A program made the translations under genes and the position numbers. Positions 24,005 through 62,151 of a DNA stretch of 64,000 bases are shown here, one piece after another. The notes beneath the pieces were generated by a model that saw only the letters and a list, made by a program, of their open reading frames with translations, searched no databases and had not been told where the DNA came from. The number at the start of each line of letters is the position of its first letter. Within the stretch, counting starts at the first letter, position 1. Source of the stretch: Octopus sinensis (taxonomy: Eukaryota); contig NC_043007.1 of the NCBI RefSeq assembly GCF_006345805.1, positions 28,272,001 through 28,336,000 on the forward strand, written 5' to 3'.

Positions 24005-24497
24005 ATACCCTGATGCAGAACCACACAGTGGCTCTCATGGCTTCTGATCTTAACTGATTGGAAGTGTTATCATGTACATTGTTTTGTGTTGGTATAAAAG
24101 ATGGGCTACAGCAAATATTCTGCTCAATACCACAGATTTGCTTGTCAGTTGTTTGACCATAATCACTTGAGAATGTCTCTTGGCGGCTGACGATATGTGC
24201 ATCTCTGATCATGAGCAGAAGTAGTGGGGGAGCATCATAGCCATGTGTGGAGAGGAATTCTTTGGGGTTTGAATAATTTACCTCTGGAAACATGGGTGTT
24301 TCGTTCAACATCCTTAAACAATCCTTATTCAAGGACCTTTTGAGCAGGATGGGCTACTCGACCTGAAGAAAATTCTAACTGGTTGTGATGCATGTGCCTG
24401 GTGCACCCTTATCAGACGGGTATATGATGGGTATACTGGGCTTCATATATTTTACCCCAGTGTCACTTTGATGGCATGCGCTGTTCTCTCACTCAAT
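24005..24497 (-). repeat. ~490-bp non-autonomous repeat in TAA-rich flanks
   Basis: Homologous to 3047-3345; bounded by (TAG/TAA)n and (TAA)n. Confidence 0.7.
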
Positions 24498-47679: not shown

Positions 47680-48710
47680 GATTCTGTGACCATTAAGATA
47701 TGCTGAAAACCCAAGCTGTCACATGTGCAAATGAATGTTGAACAGACCATTATCTCATCTCCTCCACCATGAAAATGAAGATTCCACAAAAAAGGAAACA
47801 CCAAAATCAGAACAGCAGCAAGAAATTTAATGTTCAAAAATTTCAGGATGCTAAATGATTCCAGCAAAATCCCCAAGAATATCTGCTCAAAACCAACCAA
47901 AAAATTCCATCATCACCACCTGCAAAGAAACACTTGGTTTCAAGACCAGGGGACATCAAAAATGGTTTGATGAAAATTATGAACAGCTTCAATAACTCAA
48001 CAACAAAGGAAATGCCTTCTTTGATTCTTCAATGCATGATCAGGCTCCTCTCAAAAGTGATGATATCACCACCTTTAAATCTAATGTTGCTGTCAATGCC
48101 AGATGGAAGAAACACTTTGAAGATTGGTAAGATTTTGTTTAGCTTAATAGATAAGCACTTCCCCCCATACAAAAAGGTTTAGCAAAATATTTAATAGGCA
48201 TACCCCAAAAATTTCCTTTAGCTGTGCACCCAATGTAAAAAAGATTTTAGTAGGTAGGCCCACACCTGAGATAGAGGCAGGATACTCATGTAGGAATAAG
48301 AACAACATATCCACTGAATGGCCATTGTAAAATAGAGATTGTTGTATATGAGACAGAGATAAGACCAAATGGGAAACCAAACATGTGAAAGAACATGGAA
48401 ACAACTGAAGAGCCCTTCAAAACCCACTATAACAACCATAATTCCTCCTTCAACATCCTGGAAAGATGTTACACCACAACCCTGACCAAGCACGTATGGT
48501 TATTGAAAGAAAGTACCACTGAATACAGCATAAAATGGAAGATTCTGCAGAACTGTAAAGTATACTTCAACAGCAGTAGGAAGTGCAGATTATGCTCAGC
48601 TGAGAAAAGAGCAATTATAAAGAGCACCCAACTCCCAGGCATTTACCTGAATATCAGAAGTGAAATTTTTAATCCTTGCCCAGATGAAAGGAAGTACATC
48701 CTATCATAGT
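47680..48710 (+). mobile_element. Penelope-like element relic (RT thumb plus GIY-YIG endonuclease; start approximate)
   Basis: IGK..FSLIDKHFP, KISFSC.PN, FKTHYNNH.SSF, LTKHVW.LK, IKWKIL, CRLCSAEK, LNIRSE..C. Confidence 0.75.
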
Positions 48711-52012: not shown

Positions 52013-52591
52013 GGTTATCAGTAATAATATAGGGTGAAATTAATTAATTTGGAATAATCATTAATTTCACCAAGTAGATTTCGGCATGTAAAAGCCTCAT
52101 TCGAGGAAAGTTTAAGTAATACTAAGTAATTAAGGGTTTAGCAACGATTTGCCTCACCACACACCGAATTTAGAAATAGCAGTCAAAGAGTTATAGCTAT
52201 TCTTTCTACTAAAAGGGAGATCTTTAATATACAATTATTCATAATTGTAGTGTCCTACGCTGATGAGAAAAAAAGTTGGGTAAGACATAATTATCTAATT
52301 CTTATGCTTTCCTAAAACTTAATTTCGAAACGTACGTCCAACCCATGCTAGCATGGAAAGCGGACGCTAAACGACGATGATGATGATGATGATGACGTCC
52401 GTAGGTGACTTAAAATTGTATGATAGATTGCCGTCATTTCTTTCTCTCTTGCCTGTCTGTGTTTGCCTTTCAAGTGCTGTGGTTTTACTGAGATCTCCCC
52501 TTTAGTAGAAAGAATAGCTATAACTCTTTGACTGCTATTTCTAAATTCGGTGTGTGGTGAGGCAAATCGTTGCTAAACCCTTAATTACTTA

Positions 52592-52595
<4 letters not shown>
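52013..52595 (+). mobile_element. Non-coding hammerhead-bearing element (Penelope pLTR/retrozyme-like) with 105-bp inverted repeat
   Basis: Inverted repeat 52119-52223 / 52491-52595 (1 mismatch); (TA)n on both sides. Confidence 0.75.
52254..52405 (+). ncRNA. Type I hammerhead ribozyme, interrupted by an RTE tail (52340-52394)
   Basis: CCTACG-CTGATGA-GAAA..TTTC-GAAA-CGTACG-TC-CGTAGG after removing the insert and one copy of ACGTCC. Confidence 0.8.
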
Positions 52596-52636: not shown

Positions 52637-52980
52637 ATCATTATAATCATCATCATCGTTTAACGTCCGCTTTCCATGCTAGCATGGGTTGGATGATTTG
52701 ACTGACATCTGGCGAACCAGATGACTGCACCAGGATCCAATCTGATCTGGCAGAGTTTCTACAGCTGGATGCCCTTCCTAACACCAACCACTCCAAGAGT
52801 GTAGTGGGTGCTTTTACATGCCACCGGCATGAAGGCCAGTCAGGTGGTACTGGCAATGACCACGCTCAAATGGTGCTTTTTATGTGCCACCTGCACAGGA
52901 GCCAGTCCAGCTGCACTGGCAACGACCTTGCTCGAATGTTTTTTCATGTCCCACCAGCACAAGTGCCAGTAAGGTGACAC
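52634..52980 (-). mobile_element. RTE 3' tail
   Basis: Conserved tail with (CAT)n. Confidence 0.85.
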
Positions 52981-53020
52981 AGATACATATATATATGCAT
53001 GTACATATATATGTATGTAT

Positions 53021-55132
53021 ATATTCCTGGTAAGGCAGCTGCAGGAGAAATACCTAGCCAAAGATAAGCCCCTGTACCTGGCTTTCGTTGACATGGAGAA
53101 AGGTTTTGATAGGGTCCCCCGATCCCTTATCTGGTGGTCAATGAGGAAACTAGGGATAGATGAATGGCTGGTGAGGACTGTGCAAGCCATGTACAGAGAT
53201 GCCGTAAGTAAGGTTAGGGTTGGCAACATGTACACAGAAGAATTCAAAGTAGAGGTTGGGGTCCACCAGGGTTCAGTACTCAGCCCCCTCCTATTTATCA
53301 TAGTACTCCAGGCAATTACGGAGGAATTCAAGACAGGCTGTCCCTGGGAGCTCCTCTACGCTGACGACCTTGCTCTTATTGCTGAGTCACTATCAGAACT
53401 GGAGGAGAAGTTCCAGGTGTGGAAGGAGGGTTTAGAATCAAGGGGCCTTAGAGTCAACCTAGCTAAAACCAAAGTACTAATAAGTAGAAAGGTAGACAAT
53501 CCACAAATATCTTCAGGAAGATGGCCCTGCTCGATCTGTAGAAAAGGTGTAGGTAGAAACTCTATAAGATGTACCCAGTGTAAGCTATGGACACATAAGA
53601 GGTGCAGCAATGTCAAAGGTAGGCTAACTGGGAAGATAGTTTTTGTATGTGGCAGATGCTCGGGAGCATTAACCTCCGAAAATCTGCAGAAAACAACTTC
53701 CGTCACTTTCCAGGGGGAAAAACTAGAAGTAGTTGATAGCTTCCGTTATCTAGGTGACCAAGTCAGTAGTGGGGGTGGGTGCGCTGAAAGTGTAACTGCT
53801 AGAATAAGAATAGCCTGGGCAAAGTTTAGGGAGCTCTTACCTCTGCTGGTGACTAAAGGCCTCTCGCTCAGAGTAAAAGGCAGACTGTATGATGCGTGTG
53901 TACGAACAGCCATGCTACATGGCAGCGAAACATGGGCTGTGACTGCTGAGGACATGCGTAAGCTCGTGAGGAATGAAGCCAGTATGCTCCGATGGATGTG
54001 TAATGTCAGTGTACATACTCGACAGAGCGTTAGCACCTTGAGAGAAATGTTGTACCTAAGAAGCATCAGTTGTGGTGTGCAAGAGAGACGATTGCGCTGG
54101 TATGGTCATGTGGCGAGAATGGATGAAGATAGGTGTGTGAGAAAGTGCCAATCCCTAGCAGTTGAGGGAACCCGTGGAAGAGGTAGACCCAGGAAAACCT
54201 GGGACGAGGTGGTGAAGCACGACCTTCGAACTTTAGGCCTCACTGAGGAAATGACCAGAGACCGAGACCTTTGGAAATATTCTGTACGTGAGAAGACCAG
54301 GCAGGACAAGTGAGCCCAGCCCACTTATGAATGCCTTTCCTCCCTTGGACACAAAGACCGGTTGAGGCAAGCGAAGTCGATATAGAACCTCATCCGACGA
54401 CAGACACCCATCCCAACCCCCCATGCTTGCGAAGACATGTTGGGGCAAGCGAAATCGAAACCGAATTGAACCAGCCAGGATCCCTGGCCTGGTGGTACGT
54501 AAAAAGCACTATCCGACTCGGGGCCGTGGCACGTAAAATACTCCAATGCGACCGTACGACAGGCACCCATGCCAACCCCCTTTGCTTGTGAAGACATGTT
54601 GGGGCAAGCGAAATCGAAATCGAATTGAACCAGCCAGGATCCCTGGTCTGGTGGTACGTAAAAAGCACTATCCGACTCGTGGCCGTGGCACGTAAAATAC
54701 TCCAATGCGACCGTACGACAGGCACCCTTGCCAACCCCCTTTGCTTGTGAAGACATGTTGGGGCAAGCGAAATCGAAATCGAATTGAACCAGCCAGGATC
54801 CCTGGTCTGGTGGTACGTAAAAAGCACTATCCGACTCGTGGCCGATGCCAGCACCGCCTCGACTGGCTTCCGTGCCGGTGGCACATAAAATACACCAATC
54901 TGACCGTGGCCGTTGCCAGCCCCGCCTGGCACCTGTGCAGGTGGCACGTAAAAAGCACCCACTACACTCACGGAGTGGTTGGCGTTAGGAAGGGCATCCA
55001 GCTGTAGAAACATTGCCAAATTAGACTGGAGCCTGGTGCAGCCTTCTGGCTTCCCAGAACCCCGGTCGAACCGTCCAACCCATGCTAGCATGGAGAACGG
55101 ACGTTAAACGACGATGATGATGATGATGATGA
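53021..55132 (+). mobile_element. Young 5'-truncated RTE-PHD LINE with uninterrupted RT ORF
   Basis: Open frame to 54313 (LYADD, PHD, YLG, RGRGRPRKTW); CpGs retained; (TA)n flanks. Confidence 0.95.
54400..54843 (+). repeat. 159-bp tandem repeat (~2.7 copies) in the LINE 3' UTR
   Basis: gaagacatgttggggcaagcg at 54431, 54590 and 54749. Confidence 0.9.
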
Positions 55133-56385
55133 TATGTGTATTTATAAATGTATGTATATATATGTACATGTATGTATATATATATCTATATTTCAAATAT
55201 ATTATACTGCACCAAGAACCACTTTTTATTATTCTACTATATATATATATGTATGTGTGTATGTGTATATGTATGTATGTATGTGTGTGTATGTGTATAT
55301 ATGATATGTATATATATATATGTGGTCACTGTTACTACGGCAACAGTGAGAGAATTAAAATAGTGGAGGTGGGGGCAATTACAATTTCTCAGATCCTTAA
55401 ACAGTCACTCCCGCTGGCAGTGGTATGTCTTAGGGAAGGAAAAATTTATAAAAAGAATTTTTTTTCTCTGTGAACAGATCTGATTTTGATTAGTCAAAAA
55501 ATTGATGACGTTTTACCTCAGTAGTCAAGCTTGTCGCCATGCTTGATTGGTTTCCCTACAAGATACAGTTATGGGTTAGGTCTAATTCTGATTCGTTAAA
55601 AAATTGATGACGTTTTTCTTCCGTGGTCAAACTAGCCACCTAACAGGATACAATTATGGGTCAGATCTAATTTCGATTCGCTAAAAAATTGATGACGTTT
55701 TTCTTCCGTGGTAAAACTTGTCGTTCTGCTTGGCTGGTTTCCTAAACAGGATACAGTTGGGGGTCTTTTCCTTAGAATCGTTGAAGCTTGGTTTTGATTG
55801 GTTTGGAATTATATGACGTCAGTGAACAGTGCAAGAGTACTGACTTAACTGATATAAACCCAACAATCACTAGTTGACTAAAATTACGACAACCAAGAAT
55901 CACTACTGTTGCTCCCATCGGAACACAAGGTAAAATCTATAATGAACTCCTGCACTACACTTGACAAAACAGTAAGGAACGACTTACACCTTATAATATA
56001 TTTTTCGCCTTTTCAAGAACATGGATTCTATTGAATGTATATAGCATGGATTCTATTGAATGTATGAAACAATTATGAACTATTCCATTATACTCTTTAT
56101 TATTAAAAAATTCTTTTTGGTAAGGTTCGTTATTTCAAGAGCCGAAACATGTAAAAATTAAAATTTATCTAATATAGTGGCATTTTCAAACTTCTTTTTT
56201 ACAAATATATACCCACTCGTATACGATCTAATCTTATTATAAATATATATATATATATATATATCACAATCAAGGAACGGCCATAATAGGCCTTTCACCC
56301 ACTAGAAATAACAGCCAAAAGCTTCAACCGCAAAATAACATCAATTCCGTAAACCAGGAGAAAATTAAAAAACATTTACCCTGTA

Positions 56386-56492
56386 ATTTCTTATACGATG
56401 CACCGTTTCATCTACTGGTTAATGGTAAACTAACCTGATTAAATTAAATCAAGCCAATCTACCATAAGCCCTTAGATTCATCAGTAAGAAAT
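56386..56492 (-). ncRNA. Type I hammerhead ribozyme (mirror copy)
   Basis: Reverse complement of 56517-56623. Confidence 0.85.
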
Positions 56493-56516
56493 AGCCAAGT
56501 CGGTTCCGACTTGGCT

Positions 56517-56623
56517 ATTTCTTACTGATGAATCTAAGGGCTTATGGTAGATTGGCTTGATTTAATTTAATCAGGTTAGTTTACCATTAAACAGTAGATG
56601 AAACGGTGCATCGTATAAGAAAT
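56517..56623 (+). ncRNA. Type I hammerhead ribozyme
   Basis: ATTTCTTA-CTGATGA-ATCTA..TAGAT-GAAA-CGGTGCATCG-TA-TAAGAAAT; predicted cleavage after A56615. Confidence 0.85.
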
Positions 56624-56861
56624 TACAGGGTAAATGTTTTTTAATTTTCTCCTGGTTTACGGAATTGATGTTATTTTGCGGTTGAAGCTTTTGGCTGTTA
56701 TTTCTAGTGGGTGAAAGGCCTATTATGGCCGTTCCTTGATTGTGATGTTGAACTTAAAAATGGTCTATGACTATTTAATTTTTTCCCACTAGGCCGCTGG
56801 TGGCAAAAAAATTCTACAAAATTTTTTGCCACCCTATATTGATTATATATATATATATATA

Positions 56862-59048
56862 TGGTGGATTCTCTCATCGAAGACGATGAATGAGGGTTCA
56901 TTAAATAACCTTCAACAATTCCTAAGCCCTGTGACACCGCATGTGTACCTTCAATCCAGCAGATGTCTTGCACACTTTCTCGCAAATGGTATACCTGCAT
57001 GTATTTGTTGGTTCAAAATGTCTTCTCAGGTGGACAGCTAACCCAGCTTTGCTTCGTGCTTGGAACCCACAGTGACACACACAATCATTGTTTGGTGGAT
57101 TTTGCTGATGTGTTGCTTTCAAATTTGCACAAAGGGCGTCCCTATGACGAAGGCAGTTACTTTCAAATTCTCTAGTCTTTAGAAAACACATTTTCCTCCA
57201 TTTGCTGCAATCCCTTGCTGCACTCTCCCAGGAGCTCAGAGCAATGTCACAACGCTTCAGATTGTCTTTTAGTTTGTCCTTGTAATGAAGAAGAGGACGC
57301 CCTGTTGGACGGGAAGAATTTGTCAATTGCCCATAAGAAAGCTACTTTGGAACTCTTGAGTCATCCATTCTTACGAGATGACCAGACCACCGCATTTGTA
57401 TCTTAAGCCTTACGATTTGACAATTGCTTTATAGCCTTTTCGACCTCCGACATGGATGGACTGTCAGCAAGATTCTCGATGGTTGGCTTCTGAGGAAGAT
57501 TATCAATCACTTCCTGATCCACTGTCGATTCTCTGTTTAAAACATTTGAAAAATGTTCAGCCCAGCGCTTAGTAATCTCTTTCATATCGGTGAGGAGAGT
57601 GCCATCTGACAAAAATATTGGAGAGGCCCCCTTTGAAATGGGACCAAAGACACCTTTGACATTTTGGTAGAAAGATTTAAAATCGCACTTATCTGCTGCA
57701 TCTTGTAAGGACTGGGCTTTCAACTTCCACCAGTTTTGTTTCATTTCCCGGAGTCGAGATTGTGCCAACTTTTTGGACATTCGAAAAGCCTTGTGTTTCA
57801 CTGAAGAATTTTTGTCAGTAATCCACACTTGATGGGTTTGATGCATGTTTCTGAGCAAAGGGAGGATGGTTGGATCATTTTCATCAAACCAATCTTGGTT
57901 CTTCCTTCGAACATAACCTAATGACTCTTTGGCAGAGTCATACACTGCAGTTTTAAACTCTGACCAAGATGCCTCAATGTCATTCCCACATATAATGGAG
58001 GACAGCTTTTCGTCAGTAACCGTTTGAAACGAGTGCATGGTCTCCTTAACCTTCAACTTGTCCACATCAATTCTCTTGATGAGAGAACTACGTTGATTTC
58101 AAACAGGGCATTTGATTTTCATCTTGATTGTGGAGCAGATCAATTTGTGATCTGACCAACATTTCCCTATACTGTAAGAGCATGTAAGAGTTACATCTTG
58201 TCTATCAGAACGACATACAATGACATAGTCAATGAGATGATAATGATTAGACCGGGGATGCTTCCAACTGGCTTTCTTGCAATTAGGTAGCTGAAAGTGA
58301 GCAAAAGCTCAAACTCACTGCAAAGAGACAATAAAAGAACACTGTTTGAGTTGACTTTACCAATTCCGTGTGAACCAATGACATTGCTCGAAGATTGTGT
58401 ATCACTACCTACACGAGCATTGAAGTCACCTAAGACAAACAGCTTATCTTGAATCGACACCTTGTTAATCTGTTCACGTAAAGAGGAGTAAAAACTTTCT
58501 TTTAGCTCATCAGATGAATTAAGTGTAGGTGCATAGCAACTAAAAAATGTGGCATATTTGTCTTTTCCTACCGCAACACGCAAGGACATAAGTCTGTCAT
58601 TTATACCAACAGGCAGAGAGTCAAGATTTTTGGCAATATCACTTCTGATGGCAAAACCAACACCAGATTCACGTTTCTCAGATCTTGCTTTTCCTATCCA
58701 ATAGAAAGTGTACCCACCTTCAACTTCCTCTAACTGTCCCGTATCAGCAAACCTGGTTTTGGAAAGAGCTGCAATACCAATTTTATGATGCTTCAACACA
58801 TGTGCTATGATAGTGGTTCTTCATTCAGGGTTCTTTTTGTTATCTTGGAGTGTTCTCACATTCCAAGACACAATGAACATATTTGTTCCATGTATTTTCT
58901 TTCTACTTTTGATTTGGGTGCAATATTGGATGCCCAGACATCTGCACCTGATGACAGAGACAAGAGCAAGTAAGCAATGTTTAGGTCATTTTTTATAGAC
59001 CCCCTCCCCATGAAGAGGAAAGCAGTGCCATCCTAAAAAGGGCTGCTT
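56862..59048 (-). mobile_element. RTE LINE with C-terminal C2H2 fingers; RT core deleted
   Basis: EN (ALSKTRF, GVGFAI, GDFNARVG) and linker to KQLSNRKA, fused to RWSGHLVRMD..GRP..HCGFQARSKAGLAVHLRRH..ICEKVCKTSAGLKVHMRCH; (TA)n at both ends. Confidence 0.9.
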
Positions 59049-60257: not shown

Positions 60258-60487
60258 ATGGGCAGCGATTATTCAAAGAATCGGAAGTTGAAACAGAGAA
60301 AAGTGTCAAGCAAAGTGCAACCATCTGAACCAAGTCACTCAGTTGTTATTAGTGAGGCCAGTTATGGCTTGTCTGAGAGCAATAATGTGGCAAATTACAT
60401 TACTGACAAACAAAAGGAACTCGTTCTAGAAACATGGAAAATAGTCCAGTGCAACATGACCAGAGTTGGTGTTGTGATGTTCATGAA
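60258..60487 (+). CDS. Globin (globin X/neuroglobin-like) with N-terminal extension, first coding exon
   Basis: MGSDYSK...ITDKQKELVLETWKIVQCNMTRVGVVMFMK covers globin helices A and B (A12 Trp, B6 Gly). Donor AA|gtaagt at 60488 is phase 2, the conserved B12.2 intron position. Acceptor cccag at 60179. Confidence 0.85.
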
Positions 60488-62151
60488 GTAAGTTATAAAC
60501 TGTATATATTCTATATTATGTGTGTATGTCATATACATACATATATACATGTACACACATGCACACGCACACACATTTTTATTTTGTCATATGCTCAGTT
60601 ACCTGATATCAGATTTTCTATCAGAAAAGGTTGATAGCCCCTTATTTACCTATAATGTATATGTGTCTGCATCTTTGCATAAACTGTATGTATGCCAGTG
60701 TGTAGCTGATATGTGTGTGAATATATTTATGAGATATATATGTACTTCTAAATGGATAGGCATATGGGTGGAAATGTGTGTCACCTTTCATTATTGTTAT
60801 TTAGATGACTTCATCCATAACTCACACTGCCTTTTTTCTCTCTATTGAAGCCAATTTTGAACTCCTTTAGAAAATTATGTTGCTATTTCTCATAGATCGA
60901 GTTATCACCCCCTCGCTGGTTCTATTCCGCGTGCTATATATGTATCTGTTGGTATGTGAAATATGCACAGGTATAGCAGTGAAGGCAATAACATCATCAT
61001 CGTTTTATATATATATATGTAAAGACCATGCAATACAAGGTAATGAGAATTAGTCTCAGGTACATCACACAGCCCTTACAATAAATATAAATATTACATA
61101 TATGTGCCAGAGGGAAAAAGAGAAAACAGAACGGAGTAGAATGTTTAAGAGAAGATTTATGGATATGTTAACATGTGTGTGTGTGTGTGTGTGTACGTCA
61201 TGTATATAGAATAATAGACAGGCTGTCATGAGAACAAAATGTATGTGTATATAGGCATGGATGTATGCATGTATGTTAAGTACATATAGGAATAGCAATG
61301 AAGGAGAGAGTGAAGGAGTCAAAAAGTTAGAAGAATGAGTTGGTTGCTGTACATGTTGTATGTGAAGTTGTGGCTGTAATGCTGCCTTGGTCACTTGGTA
61401 CAGGAGTTTTTGCAAGTTGTATATCTGCTGTTGATCCAAGGTGAAGTAATTCATGAACAGTGAGGTGTTGGAACCAGGATGAGTTGCTTGTGAGCTGTGT
61501 ATGTAGAGATAATGTTGACGAAGTTAAGAATATGATGGTGGCGACGAAGAAAGAGATCACCATAATGGTGTTGGACGAAGTTGGTAAGTCTCAACATGGC
61601 TACTGTCACTGGAACTGGCTGTATCTTGTGTGGTCAGTGGCTAGACCTCAAAAGGTCTGGAACCAAATCGTTGAGATGAGGAATATCAGGGTTTTTATAA
61701 GGAGCTATAGGCTCAAAACTGAATTGAGAACAGACTTTCTCCCGTGATTTTATTTAGAAGCTCTGATTGATTATACGCTGCAAATTGATACAACAAAGTA
61801 AGAGACAAATTGCACCAATACCAACCAATCAGAGTAGTGGACACAACGGGATCCAAGTAGAGGCCAAAGGCTAGCTGTTACCTGCTATGTTTGAATGCAT
61901 GTGTATATAATAAAGGGGAGAGAGGAATTTCACTTGAGTGTTCATTACATATATATATGTACCATGAGATGTGCTATATATATATATAGCACATCTCATG
62001 GTAGATGTCTATCTTTGATGGTATGTAAATATATACACATTTATGCGTGCATGTATGCATCTATGTAAGTGCACATATGTATATATCTGTACCTAATCTT
62101 TTGTGATTATGGGTATTGGTATATAAATATTTACTCTTACATATATATATA

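Follow-up and report, generated by a model that had tools for sequence, protein, structure and literature searches.

A palindromic insertion with two predicted hammerhead ribozymes in Octopus sinensis has the features of a retrozyme family with paired fixed ends

The palindrome is part of a longer insertion in a (TA)n run

The window, a stretch of 64,000 nucleotides from the Octopus sinensis genome (contig NC_043007.1; genome size 2.72 Gb), contains an inverted repeat with two 241-nt arms at 56263-56503 and 56506-56746, which are separated by a TT spacer and differ at a single mismatch (56418/56591). The original prediction had described a 484-bp palindrome at 56263..56746, and its arms, 2-nt spacer and one mismatch were all re-found, confirming that the palindrome is real. 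The element, however, does not end where the palindrome does. The palindrome is part of a 583-bp insertion (56263-56845) whose right arm extends 99 nt beyond it, and both this tail and the surrounding (TA)n target had been missed. The features of the insertion are given below, with positions inside it in the coordinates of the family's repeat unit and with its two kinds of outer end called site A (unit 489) and site B (unit ~390).

56243..56262, no strand: left remnant of the (TA)n target
56263..56845, no strand: whole retrozyme insertion, 583 bp; two 5'-truncated arms head-to-head, unit 390>150 (-) and 147>489 (+)
56263..56503, minus strand: left (inverted) arm, unit positions 150-390; outer end at site B, no tail
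56386..56492, minus strand: mirror type I hammerhead; core from 56484, predicted cut after 56394
56503..56506, no strand: 5'-to-5' junction; the TT spacer is native unit sequence, with a 1-nt overlap at 56503
56503..56845, plus strand: right arm, unit positions 147-489; outer end at site A, with tail
56517..56623, plus strand: type I hammerhead; stem I 56517-56524/56616-56623, predicted cut after 56615
56525-56531 (CUGAUGA), 56532-56536/56595-56599 (stem II base) and 56600-56603 (GAAA), plus strand: core of the plus-strand hammerhead, with a near-palindromic stem III
56747..56845, plus strand: tail, 99 nt, unit 391-489, between end sites B and A
56846..56862, no strand: right remnant of the (TA)n target

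Flanked by (TA)n runs on both sides, the insertion follows the rule of its family in pairing a site A end with a site B end, and its 99-nt tail contains a 12-bp hairpin at about 56798-56832. The copy is perfectly palindromic because both arms stop at unit 147-150. It differs by ~1% from the family majority sequence and is young, and the private change in the left-arm hammerhead (56418) falls outside the ribozyme core.

Remnants of other elements surround the insertion. Directly to its right lies a LINE remnant on the minus strand (56860-58820), a broken endonuclease-to-zinc-finger frame with weak Pfam matches, and another LINE remnant with an RT frame (PF00078) occupies 52973-54313 on the plus strand. 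The left flank (55329-56250) resembles, at about 70-93%, the 3' untranslated end of a Penelope-like element (PLE) family encoding a 781-aa RT/GIY-YIG protein; an intact relative carries a hammerhead core of the U3-A8 type, and in the window this core has degenerated. A plus-strand fragment at 47859-48709 looks by eye like a decayed PLE-like thumb/endonuclease region; it is without a Pfam match, and 150 relatives were scored in the genome. In addition, a second hammerhead-bearing inverted element lies beside (TA)n at 52119-52595, with 105-nt inverted arms, CUGAUGA at 52260, GAAA at 52327 and a palindromic stem III. A short GAT-tailed repeat has inserted at its cleavage site, splitting off the 3' half of stem I (~52400), and relatives of this element were found at loci L131, L018 and L122.

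The palindrome had also been placed about 3.5 kb upstream of a globin coding exon. The distance is correct, but the globin identity is only weakly supported. A globin-like first coding exon, with a Met-Gly start and a GT donor at its end, is present at 60258-60488 on the plus strand; all seven of its PDB matches were globins at weak E values (0.13-0.34), a Pfam search gave no globin match for it and the Atlas returned unnamed clusters only. We found no link between the insertion and this exon, and a LINE remnant lies between them.

Each arm carries a predicted type I hammerhead

A descriptor scan of both strands across the whole window returned three hammerhead matches, two of which lie in the palindrome. 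As had been predicted, a full type I hammerhead was found on each arm's own strand, and in both, stem I is 8 bp long and the base of stem II 5 bp, the remaining parts being CUGAUGA, GAAA, CGGUGCAUCG and GUA. Descriptor and fold together recovered the parts that a type I ribozyme requires (a CUGANGA core, GAAA and NUH, plus three stems of which stem I is open), and the fold of a single arm had a z score of -4.5, none of 200 shuffled sequences being as stable. The third match, at 24187, was weak, with a stem II of only 2 bp. Covariance models, which had been put forward as a check on the ribozymes, did not recover them: the Rfam search gave no match in the window at gathering score, and a hammerhead model was absent from its 22 matches at E<=10, likely because stem II holds a 68-nt insert. 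We also considered and rejected a pre-miRNA reading, as all Rfam miRNA matches were far below gathering and were generic hairpin matches.

Across 88 loci of the family, compensatory changes were found in stem I at pairs 164/264 (TA in 64 loci, CG in 19) and 168/260 (AT in 82, GC in 4), and pairs 165/263 and 161/267 also changed in compensating fashion. In stem II, pair 180/239 showed such a change (AT in 75 loci, GC in 10). Pair 176/243 at the foot of stem II was rejected as a case of covariation, being broken in 37 of 87 loci (AT 50, AC 19, AA 9, TT 9). Positions N7 and H17 varied across the 88 loci, and the core contained no locus-fixed change in 728 cells compared to 495 in 29,686 cells elsewhere, a difference that is inflated because loci entered the set through exact motif matches that include part of the core. 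Two divergent relatives retain the core with a different stem I sequence. Judged by stem covariation, which is partly biased by the motif-based choice of loci, the ribozyme fold is kept in the family.

The calculated energy of stem III is weak when it stands alone (-1.2 kcal/mol) and strong when it forms a self-dimer (-19.5 kcal/mol), in agreement with the dimer model set out in the relevant section of PMC4209133. Hammerhead cleavage in the window copy would probably need a dimer. A Xenopus preprint describes cleavage in only one of nine retrozyme dimers, and the in vitro section of PMC11167929 reports insertion without a need for hammerhead cleavage.

The insertion belongs to a large family of non-coding retrozymes

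A genome-wide copy search, which the original prediction had called for, uncovered a large family. The core 20-mer had 854 exact matches in the genome compared to 0 for its reversed control, and the stem-III 16-mer had 3,294 compared to 1; by our own count the first 100 stem-III matches form 34 clusters, which suggests roughly a thousand loci. When the right arm and tail were used as the query, 1,700 first-look candidates were obtained, and all 40 that were scored were 97-100% identical. The tandem unit of the family has a period of 485-489 nt and occurs in arrays of up to 13 pieces. It is non-coding, with 36.8% GC and a longest ATG-initiated ORF of 26 aa, and no RT or GIY-YIG ORF was found in or attached to any family locus examined.

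On these sequence characters, the window palindrome belongs to a ~489-nt non-coding, hammerhead-bearing family of non-LTR retrozymes. The predicted retrozyme or Penelope-like lineage, with its inverted arrangement, is borne out by the features of the family. The narrower reading of the palindrome as inverted Penelope pLTRs had to be abandoned because no RT/GIY-YIG ORF, and hence no ORF-bearing element, is attached to the family loci examined. Likewise, we rejected an identity as an autonomous EN+ PLE, since an RT plus GIY-YIG ORF between pLTRs was found neither in nor next to the family loci examined. It had also been missed that the palindrome is an ordinary insertion of a large family in which the head-to-head form is the rule. 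No RNA record was listed as containing the family; contigs of one run, which is RNA by guess only, match it, but such contigs are uninformative on transcription and on circles. A bacterial promoter scan stayed at chance level, using a bacterial model that is inapplicable to this genome.

Inverted insertions pair two fixed ends and point outward

The geometry of the insertions was scored at 51 loci chosen by position, comprising every one of the 24 clusters of the 20-mer on chr1, its first 7 on chr2 and 20 of 29 further clusters of the 16-mer, the latter being weighted toward single-motif loci. Among these were 35 simple inverted insertions, 15 insertions with one orientation and one complex, internally duplicated locus. 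Site A (unit 489) was paired with site B (~390) in 33 of the 35 simple inverted loci; one of the remaining two looks B/B, the other has an eroded end, and no A/A locus was seen among the 35. Such pairing in 33 of 34 loci, the eroded locus being dropped, has a probability of P = 2e-9 under an independent 50:50 choice of ends. Insertions with one orientation end at A or at B, and up to five of them display, by eye, a tiny opposite arm that ends at A. All 64 single-switch junctions were divergent, with the arms pointing outward. In nine further chr1 clusters, the ends of which lie outside the scored set, the stem-III motif positions ran minus-then-plus wherever both strands occur. TA-rich flanks were present on both sides in 38 of 50 loci, on one side in 10 and on neither side in 2. 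A similar end pairing was found in two further sets of loci, 9 picked by hand and 28 biased by the query, and a single true B/B case, L160, departs from it. Symmetric about its centre and ending at unit 391 on either side, this palindrome (L160:2104-2764) alone clearly breaks the A/B rule; it may have arisen through fold-back or through an error of assembly.

The longer arm was the A arm in 12 and the B arm in 21 of the 33 A/B loci, and both arms exceeded one unit in 18 of them. Symmetric junctions were found in 9 of 64 loci, compared to about 2.7 expected (p = 0.0016), and, among the loci chosen by position, in 4 of 35 (p = 0.06). The window copy belongs to this rare symmetric class within the family and, given that symmetric junctions are somewhat enriched, may have arisen by fold-back. 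Overall, the family displays the traits of PLE-type insertion, namely an inverted 5'-truncated copy, a tail at one end and an AT-rich target. Cleaved linear RNA was rejected as the template, with only 2 of 128 arm stops falling at unit 257-263; 14 of 128 stops fell in unit 256-285 (p = 0.026), an interval that was picked post hoc, and the linear-template reading was not accepted.

Several related loci were observed alongside. L207 holds the same insertion twice, and its 3.1-kb gap is without an ORF and looked like an internal duplication; L196 and L197, ~26 kb apart, have the same layout, and both cases represent local or assembly duplicates. A second retrozyme family (L196:5760-6870, L197, L104) has a unit of about 535 nt and a different hammerhead, and shares short tail-region motifs with the window family. 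Its insertions have the same head-to-head layout with two end sites (A/B) in (TA)n. Furthermore, a 68%-identical relative of the window family with an intact hammerhead (L228:2045-2483) has an end equivalent to site B in (TA)n.

Each insertion tends to carry a single haplotype

Divergence between units was 0.66% within an arm (349 pairs) and 0.63% between opposite arms (201 pairs), compared to 2.9% between loci (32,744 pairs). We counted rare alleles in alignment columns with at least 3 units, leaving out L207 and pieces with <85% identity or <41 nt. Thirty-two rare alleles were fixed in all covering units, 23 of these across both arms, in 20 of 61 loci; a further 25 were partly shared and 196 occurred in single units. 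The arms of the window copy share two rare alleles, one of which is absent from 214 other units. For an allele to be fixed across an array a single-unit bottleneck is needed, and a monomer circle is therefore the simplest source; homogeneous multimer transcripts, gene conversion or assembly polishing could alternatively give rise to shared haplotypes. The 25 partly shared alleles indicate some local duplication. An excess of single-unit changes is expected if the units of an array were born together, and some of the singles may be sequence errors. In addition, we looked for a mark of A-to-I editing in the templates, which was rejected for want of a clear signal among the 32 locus-fixed rare alleles (5 A>G, 8 T>C).

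Comparison with known systems

Metazoan non-LTR retrozymes, as characterized by Cervera and de la Pena 2020 (PMC7229834) and in the preprint of Li et al. (10.64898/2026.07.22.740005), resemble the window family: their tandem units are non-coding, low in GC and a few hundred nt long, each holds one type I hammerhead, and the copies are dispersed in the thousands. Unlike these, the window family mostly consists of two head-to-head arms inserted in (TA)n, its two fixed end sites lying 99 nt apart, and the window copy itself is without tandem same-strand ribozymes. The word 'inverted' is absent from the main text of PMC7229834, and 'tail' is absent from that of 10.64898/2026.07.22.740005.

The EN+ PLEs (Penelope/Poseidon, Neptune, Nematis and Naiad), in the portions of PMC8557442, PMC11167929 and PMC4209133 devoted to them, share the inverted 5'-truncated copy, the tail at one end, a microsatellite or AT-rich target and a type I hammerhead whose stem III is palindromic. 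Pairs of hammerheads with one ribozyme on each strand, spaced by 100-700 bp, were already noted in PMC4209133. In contrast to the EN+ PLEs so described, the window family is without an RT or GIY-YIG ORF and has a tail of 99 nt, not 30-40 bp. It further differs in its long stem II and in arms of up to many whole units, and no homologous autonomous pLTR was found for it among 79 PLE loci.

MITE and foldback DNA transposons resemble the window family in their long inverted repeats, TA context and high copy number. Such an identity was rejected since a common terminal inverted repeat at both ends was not found; instead, the termini of the window family differ (A versus B), arm lengths and centres vary between copies, and the unit occurs in direct tandems. 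In L1 twin priming, two cDNAs made on opposite target strands result in an inverted insertion, as we propose below for the window family. In an L1 twin-priming product, the second start varies and the two arms cover separate, non-overlapping stretches of a single RNA, whereas the arms of the window family overlap in sequence, contain repeats of whole units and begin at two fixed positions.

Earlier publications already cover retrozymes, the hammerheads of PLEs, inverted copies and one-sided tails. We found no description of strict A/B pairing or of two-armed retrozyme arrays in the library searched or in the two animal-retrozyme papers. The terms 'retrozyme' and 'ribozyme' are absent from the main text of the octopus repeat annotation PMC13282606.

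A proposed mechanism of insertion by a Penelope-like enzyme

We propose that the insertion was likely written by a trans-acting PLE RT/GIY-YIG enzyme that made two cDNAs, one per target strand (probability about 0.7). Tandem arrays elsewhere would be transcribed, self-cleaved and circularised to yield a ~489-nt RNA, a step taken over from the literature. A PLE protein, probably a dimer, would then bind the 99-nt tail and nick both strands of a (TA)n run, the target at which the insertions are observed. Two reverse transcriptions would start on opposite strands, at unit 489 and at ~390 respectively; in the loci themselves the arms are oriented outward and the ends paired, and the reading of these ends as RT starts is borrowed from the PAc in vitro result. 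Each RT would circle the putative template for a variable length, which would leave the tandem units seen in either or both arms with the haplotype that they share. Finally, the two cDNA ends would be joined, and in the window copy both may have stopped at unit 147-150, giving the palindrome and its one-sided tail. We hold more tentatively, at just under even odds, a concerted version of these events in which a PLE dimer on one retrozyme circle launches two concurrent rolling-circle reverse transcriptions, one per tail edge, on opposite TA strands.

Several of the steps have published counterparts. According to the biochemical sections of PMC11167929, a PLE protein cuts and extends both strands of AT-rich DNA and is predicted to dimerize, and two internal RT start sites bound the genomic tail. 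The passages of PMC8557442 on insertion structure describe an inverted 5' copy with a 30-40-bp tail often at one end only, and ascribe the tail to endonuclease resolution. Circle-templated tandem cDNA was proposed, and PLEs were named as candidates, in the part of PMC7229834 dealing with mobility. In the octopus genome itself, intact RT plus GIY-YIG ORFs of 775-781 aa are present, and a GIY-YIG PLE at C29, inserted in (TA)n, has an inverted copy and a ~55-nt tail that is confined to one of its ends. A young GIY-YIG PLE of high copy number (L227-L230; G000:C16, C29), with an inverted 5' copy and a one-sided tail of ~55 nt, carries, by eye, a CUGAUGC-type core variant in its terminal repeat and is a possible partner. 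A search of 79 PLE-endonuclease loci revealed no autonomous PLE that has the unit or the tail in common with the family; these loci sample few of many families and comprise 30 loci found with the decayed PLE fragment, 30 with Pfam GIY-YIG, 16 longer stretches and 3 of a second young PLE. The short end of this second young PLE was likened to site B, a resemblance too weak to claim.

As a rival for the window copy, we weighed fold-back, whereby a site-A cDNA would have snapped back at unit 147-150, copied itself and been cut by the endonuclease at site B. The near-perfect symmetry, the 2-nt loop and the two rare alleles common to both window arms are consistent with such an event, as are the symmetric junctions in 9 of 64 loci, the symmetric L160 with both ends at 391 and the endonuclease resolution given as tail source in the corresponding passage of PMC8557442. 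However, 55 of the 64 junctions are asymmetric, and because the A arm is the shorter one in 21 of 33 loci, the B arm cannot in general be a copy of the A cDNA. Insertions with one orientation end at A or B, and an A/B pair would require a second precise event in addition to pure fold-back, which we regard as unlikely. It is more doubtful still that the insertions are truncated pLTRs or linear multimers of an unseen autonomous PLE whose units arose through later unequal crossing-over, with no circle. Local amplification of pLTR-derived repeats has been proposed in the relevant part of 10.64898/2026.07.22.740005, and local duplication would fit the 25 rare alleles that only some units have in common within a few arrays, but single-unit changes (196, some of which may be errors) far exceed these, no PLE ORF lies at any family locus examined, and in 18 of 33 loci both inverted arms hold arrays while their fixed ends are intact.

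Almost identical arms with repeats on both flanks are also what a fold-back read or a mis-joined repeat would produce, and the centre of the window palindrome is bridged by none of the contigs listed. An assembly artefact is nevertheless very improbable because the window copy has two unlike flanks and its ends conform to the A/B pairing of the family. In addition, 64 loci share the layout with varied junctions, and palindrome-crossing joints, as other head-to-head copies would give, are present in contigs of the short-read runs X1 and X2. We give least credence of all to a host-selected dsRNA/ribozyme switch controlling the downstream globin-like gene. The exon, of weak globin identity, is 3.5 kb away and read-through RNA would be double-stranded, but the low divergence from the family majority (about 1%) marks the copy as young, and it is one of roughly a thousand loci, sitting in a microsatellite between other transposon remnants.

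Predicted fate of the window copy and significance of the family

Read-through RNA from either strand should, by prediction, fold into a hairpin of 241 bp in which both ribozymes are blocked: forcing the hammerhead in such RNA would cost 133-135 kcal/mol, compared to 1.8 kcal/mol for an arm alone, and the sequestration that had been anticipated is borne out by this calculation. The related suggestion that transcripts started near the centre would self-cleave stands, in the fold calculation, for starts at about 56494 or later but not for earlier starts. Sequestration applies to most family insertions and does not imply a special role. The window copy has one ribozyme per strand, and two consecutive same-strand hammerheads were not found in it; without these it cannot release a monomer, and we predict that it makes no circle and is a dead-end insertion. 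It is an ordinary copy, for which a host function is not indicated.

Retrozyme mobility and the inverted one-tailed insertions of PLEs are posed as open questions in the pertinent parts of PMC7229834, PMC8557442 and 10.64898/2026.07.22.740005. The young octopus family ties both questions together through the pairing of two fixed ends, the outward orientation and the one-haplotype arrays of whole units in both arms, and it provides the existing in vitro PLE assay with a 489-nt template, two predicted starts and a TA target. If the concerted reaction is true, it would account jointly for the inverted copies of PLEs, the tail on one side and the tandem arrays of retrozymes, and most insertions would be born as dsRNA-forming hairpins that damp their own ribozymes. 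While the window copy alone is ordinary, the pattern of its family is a testable clue to how retrozymes move.
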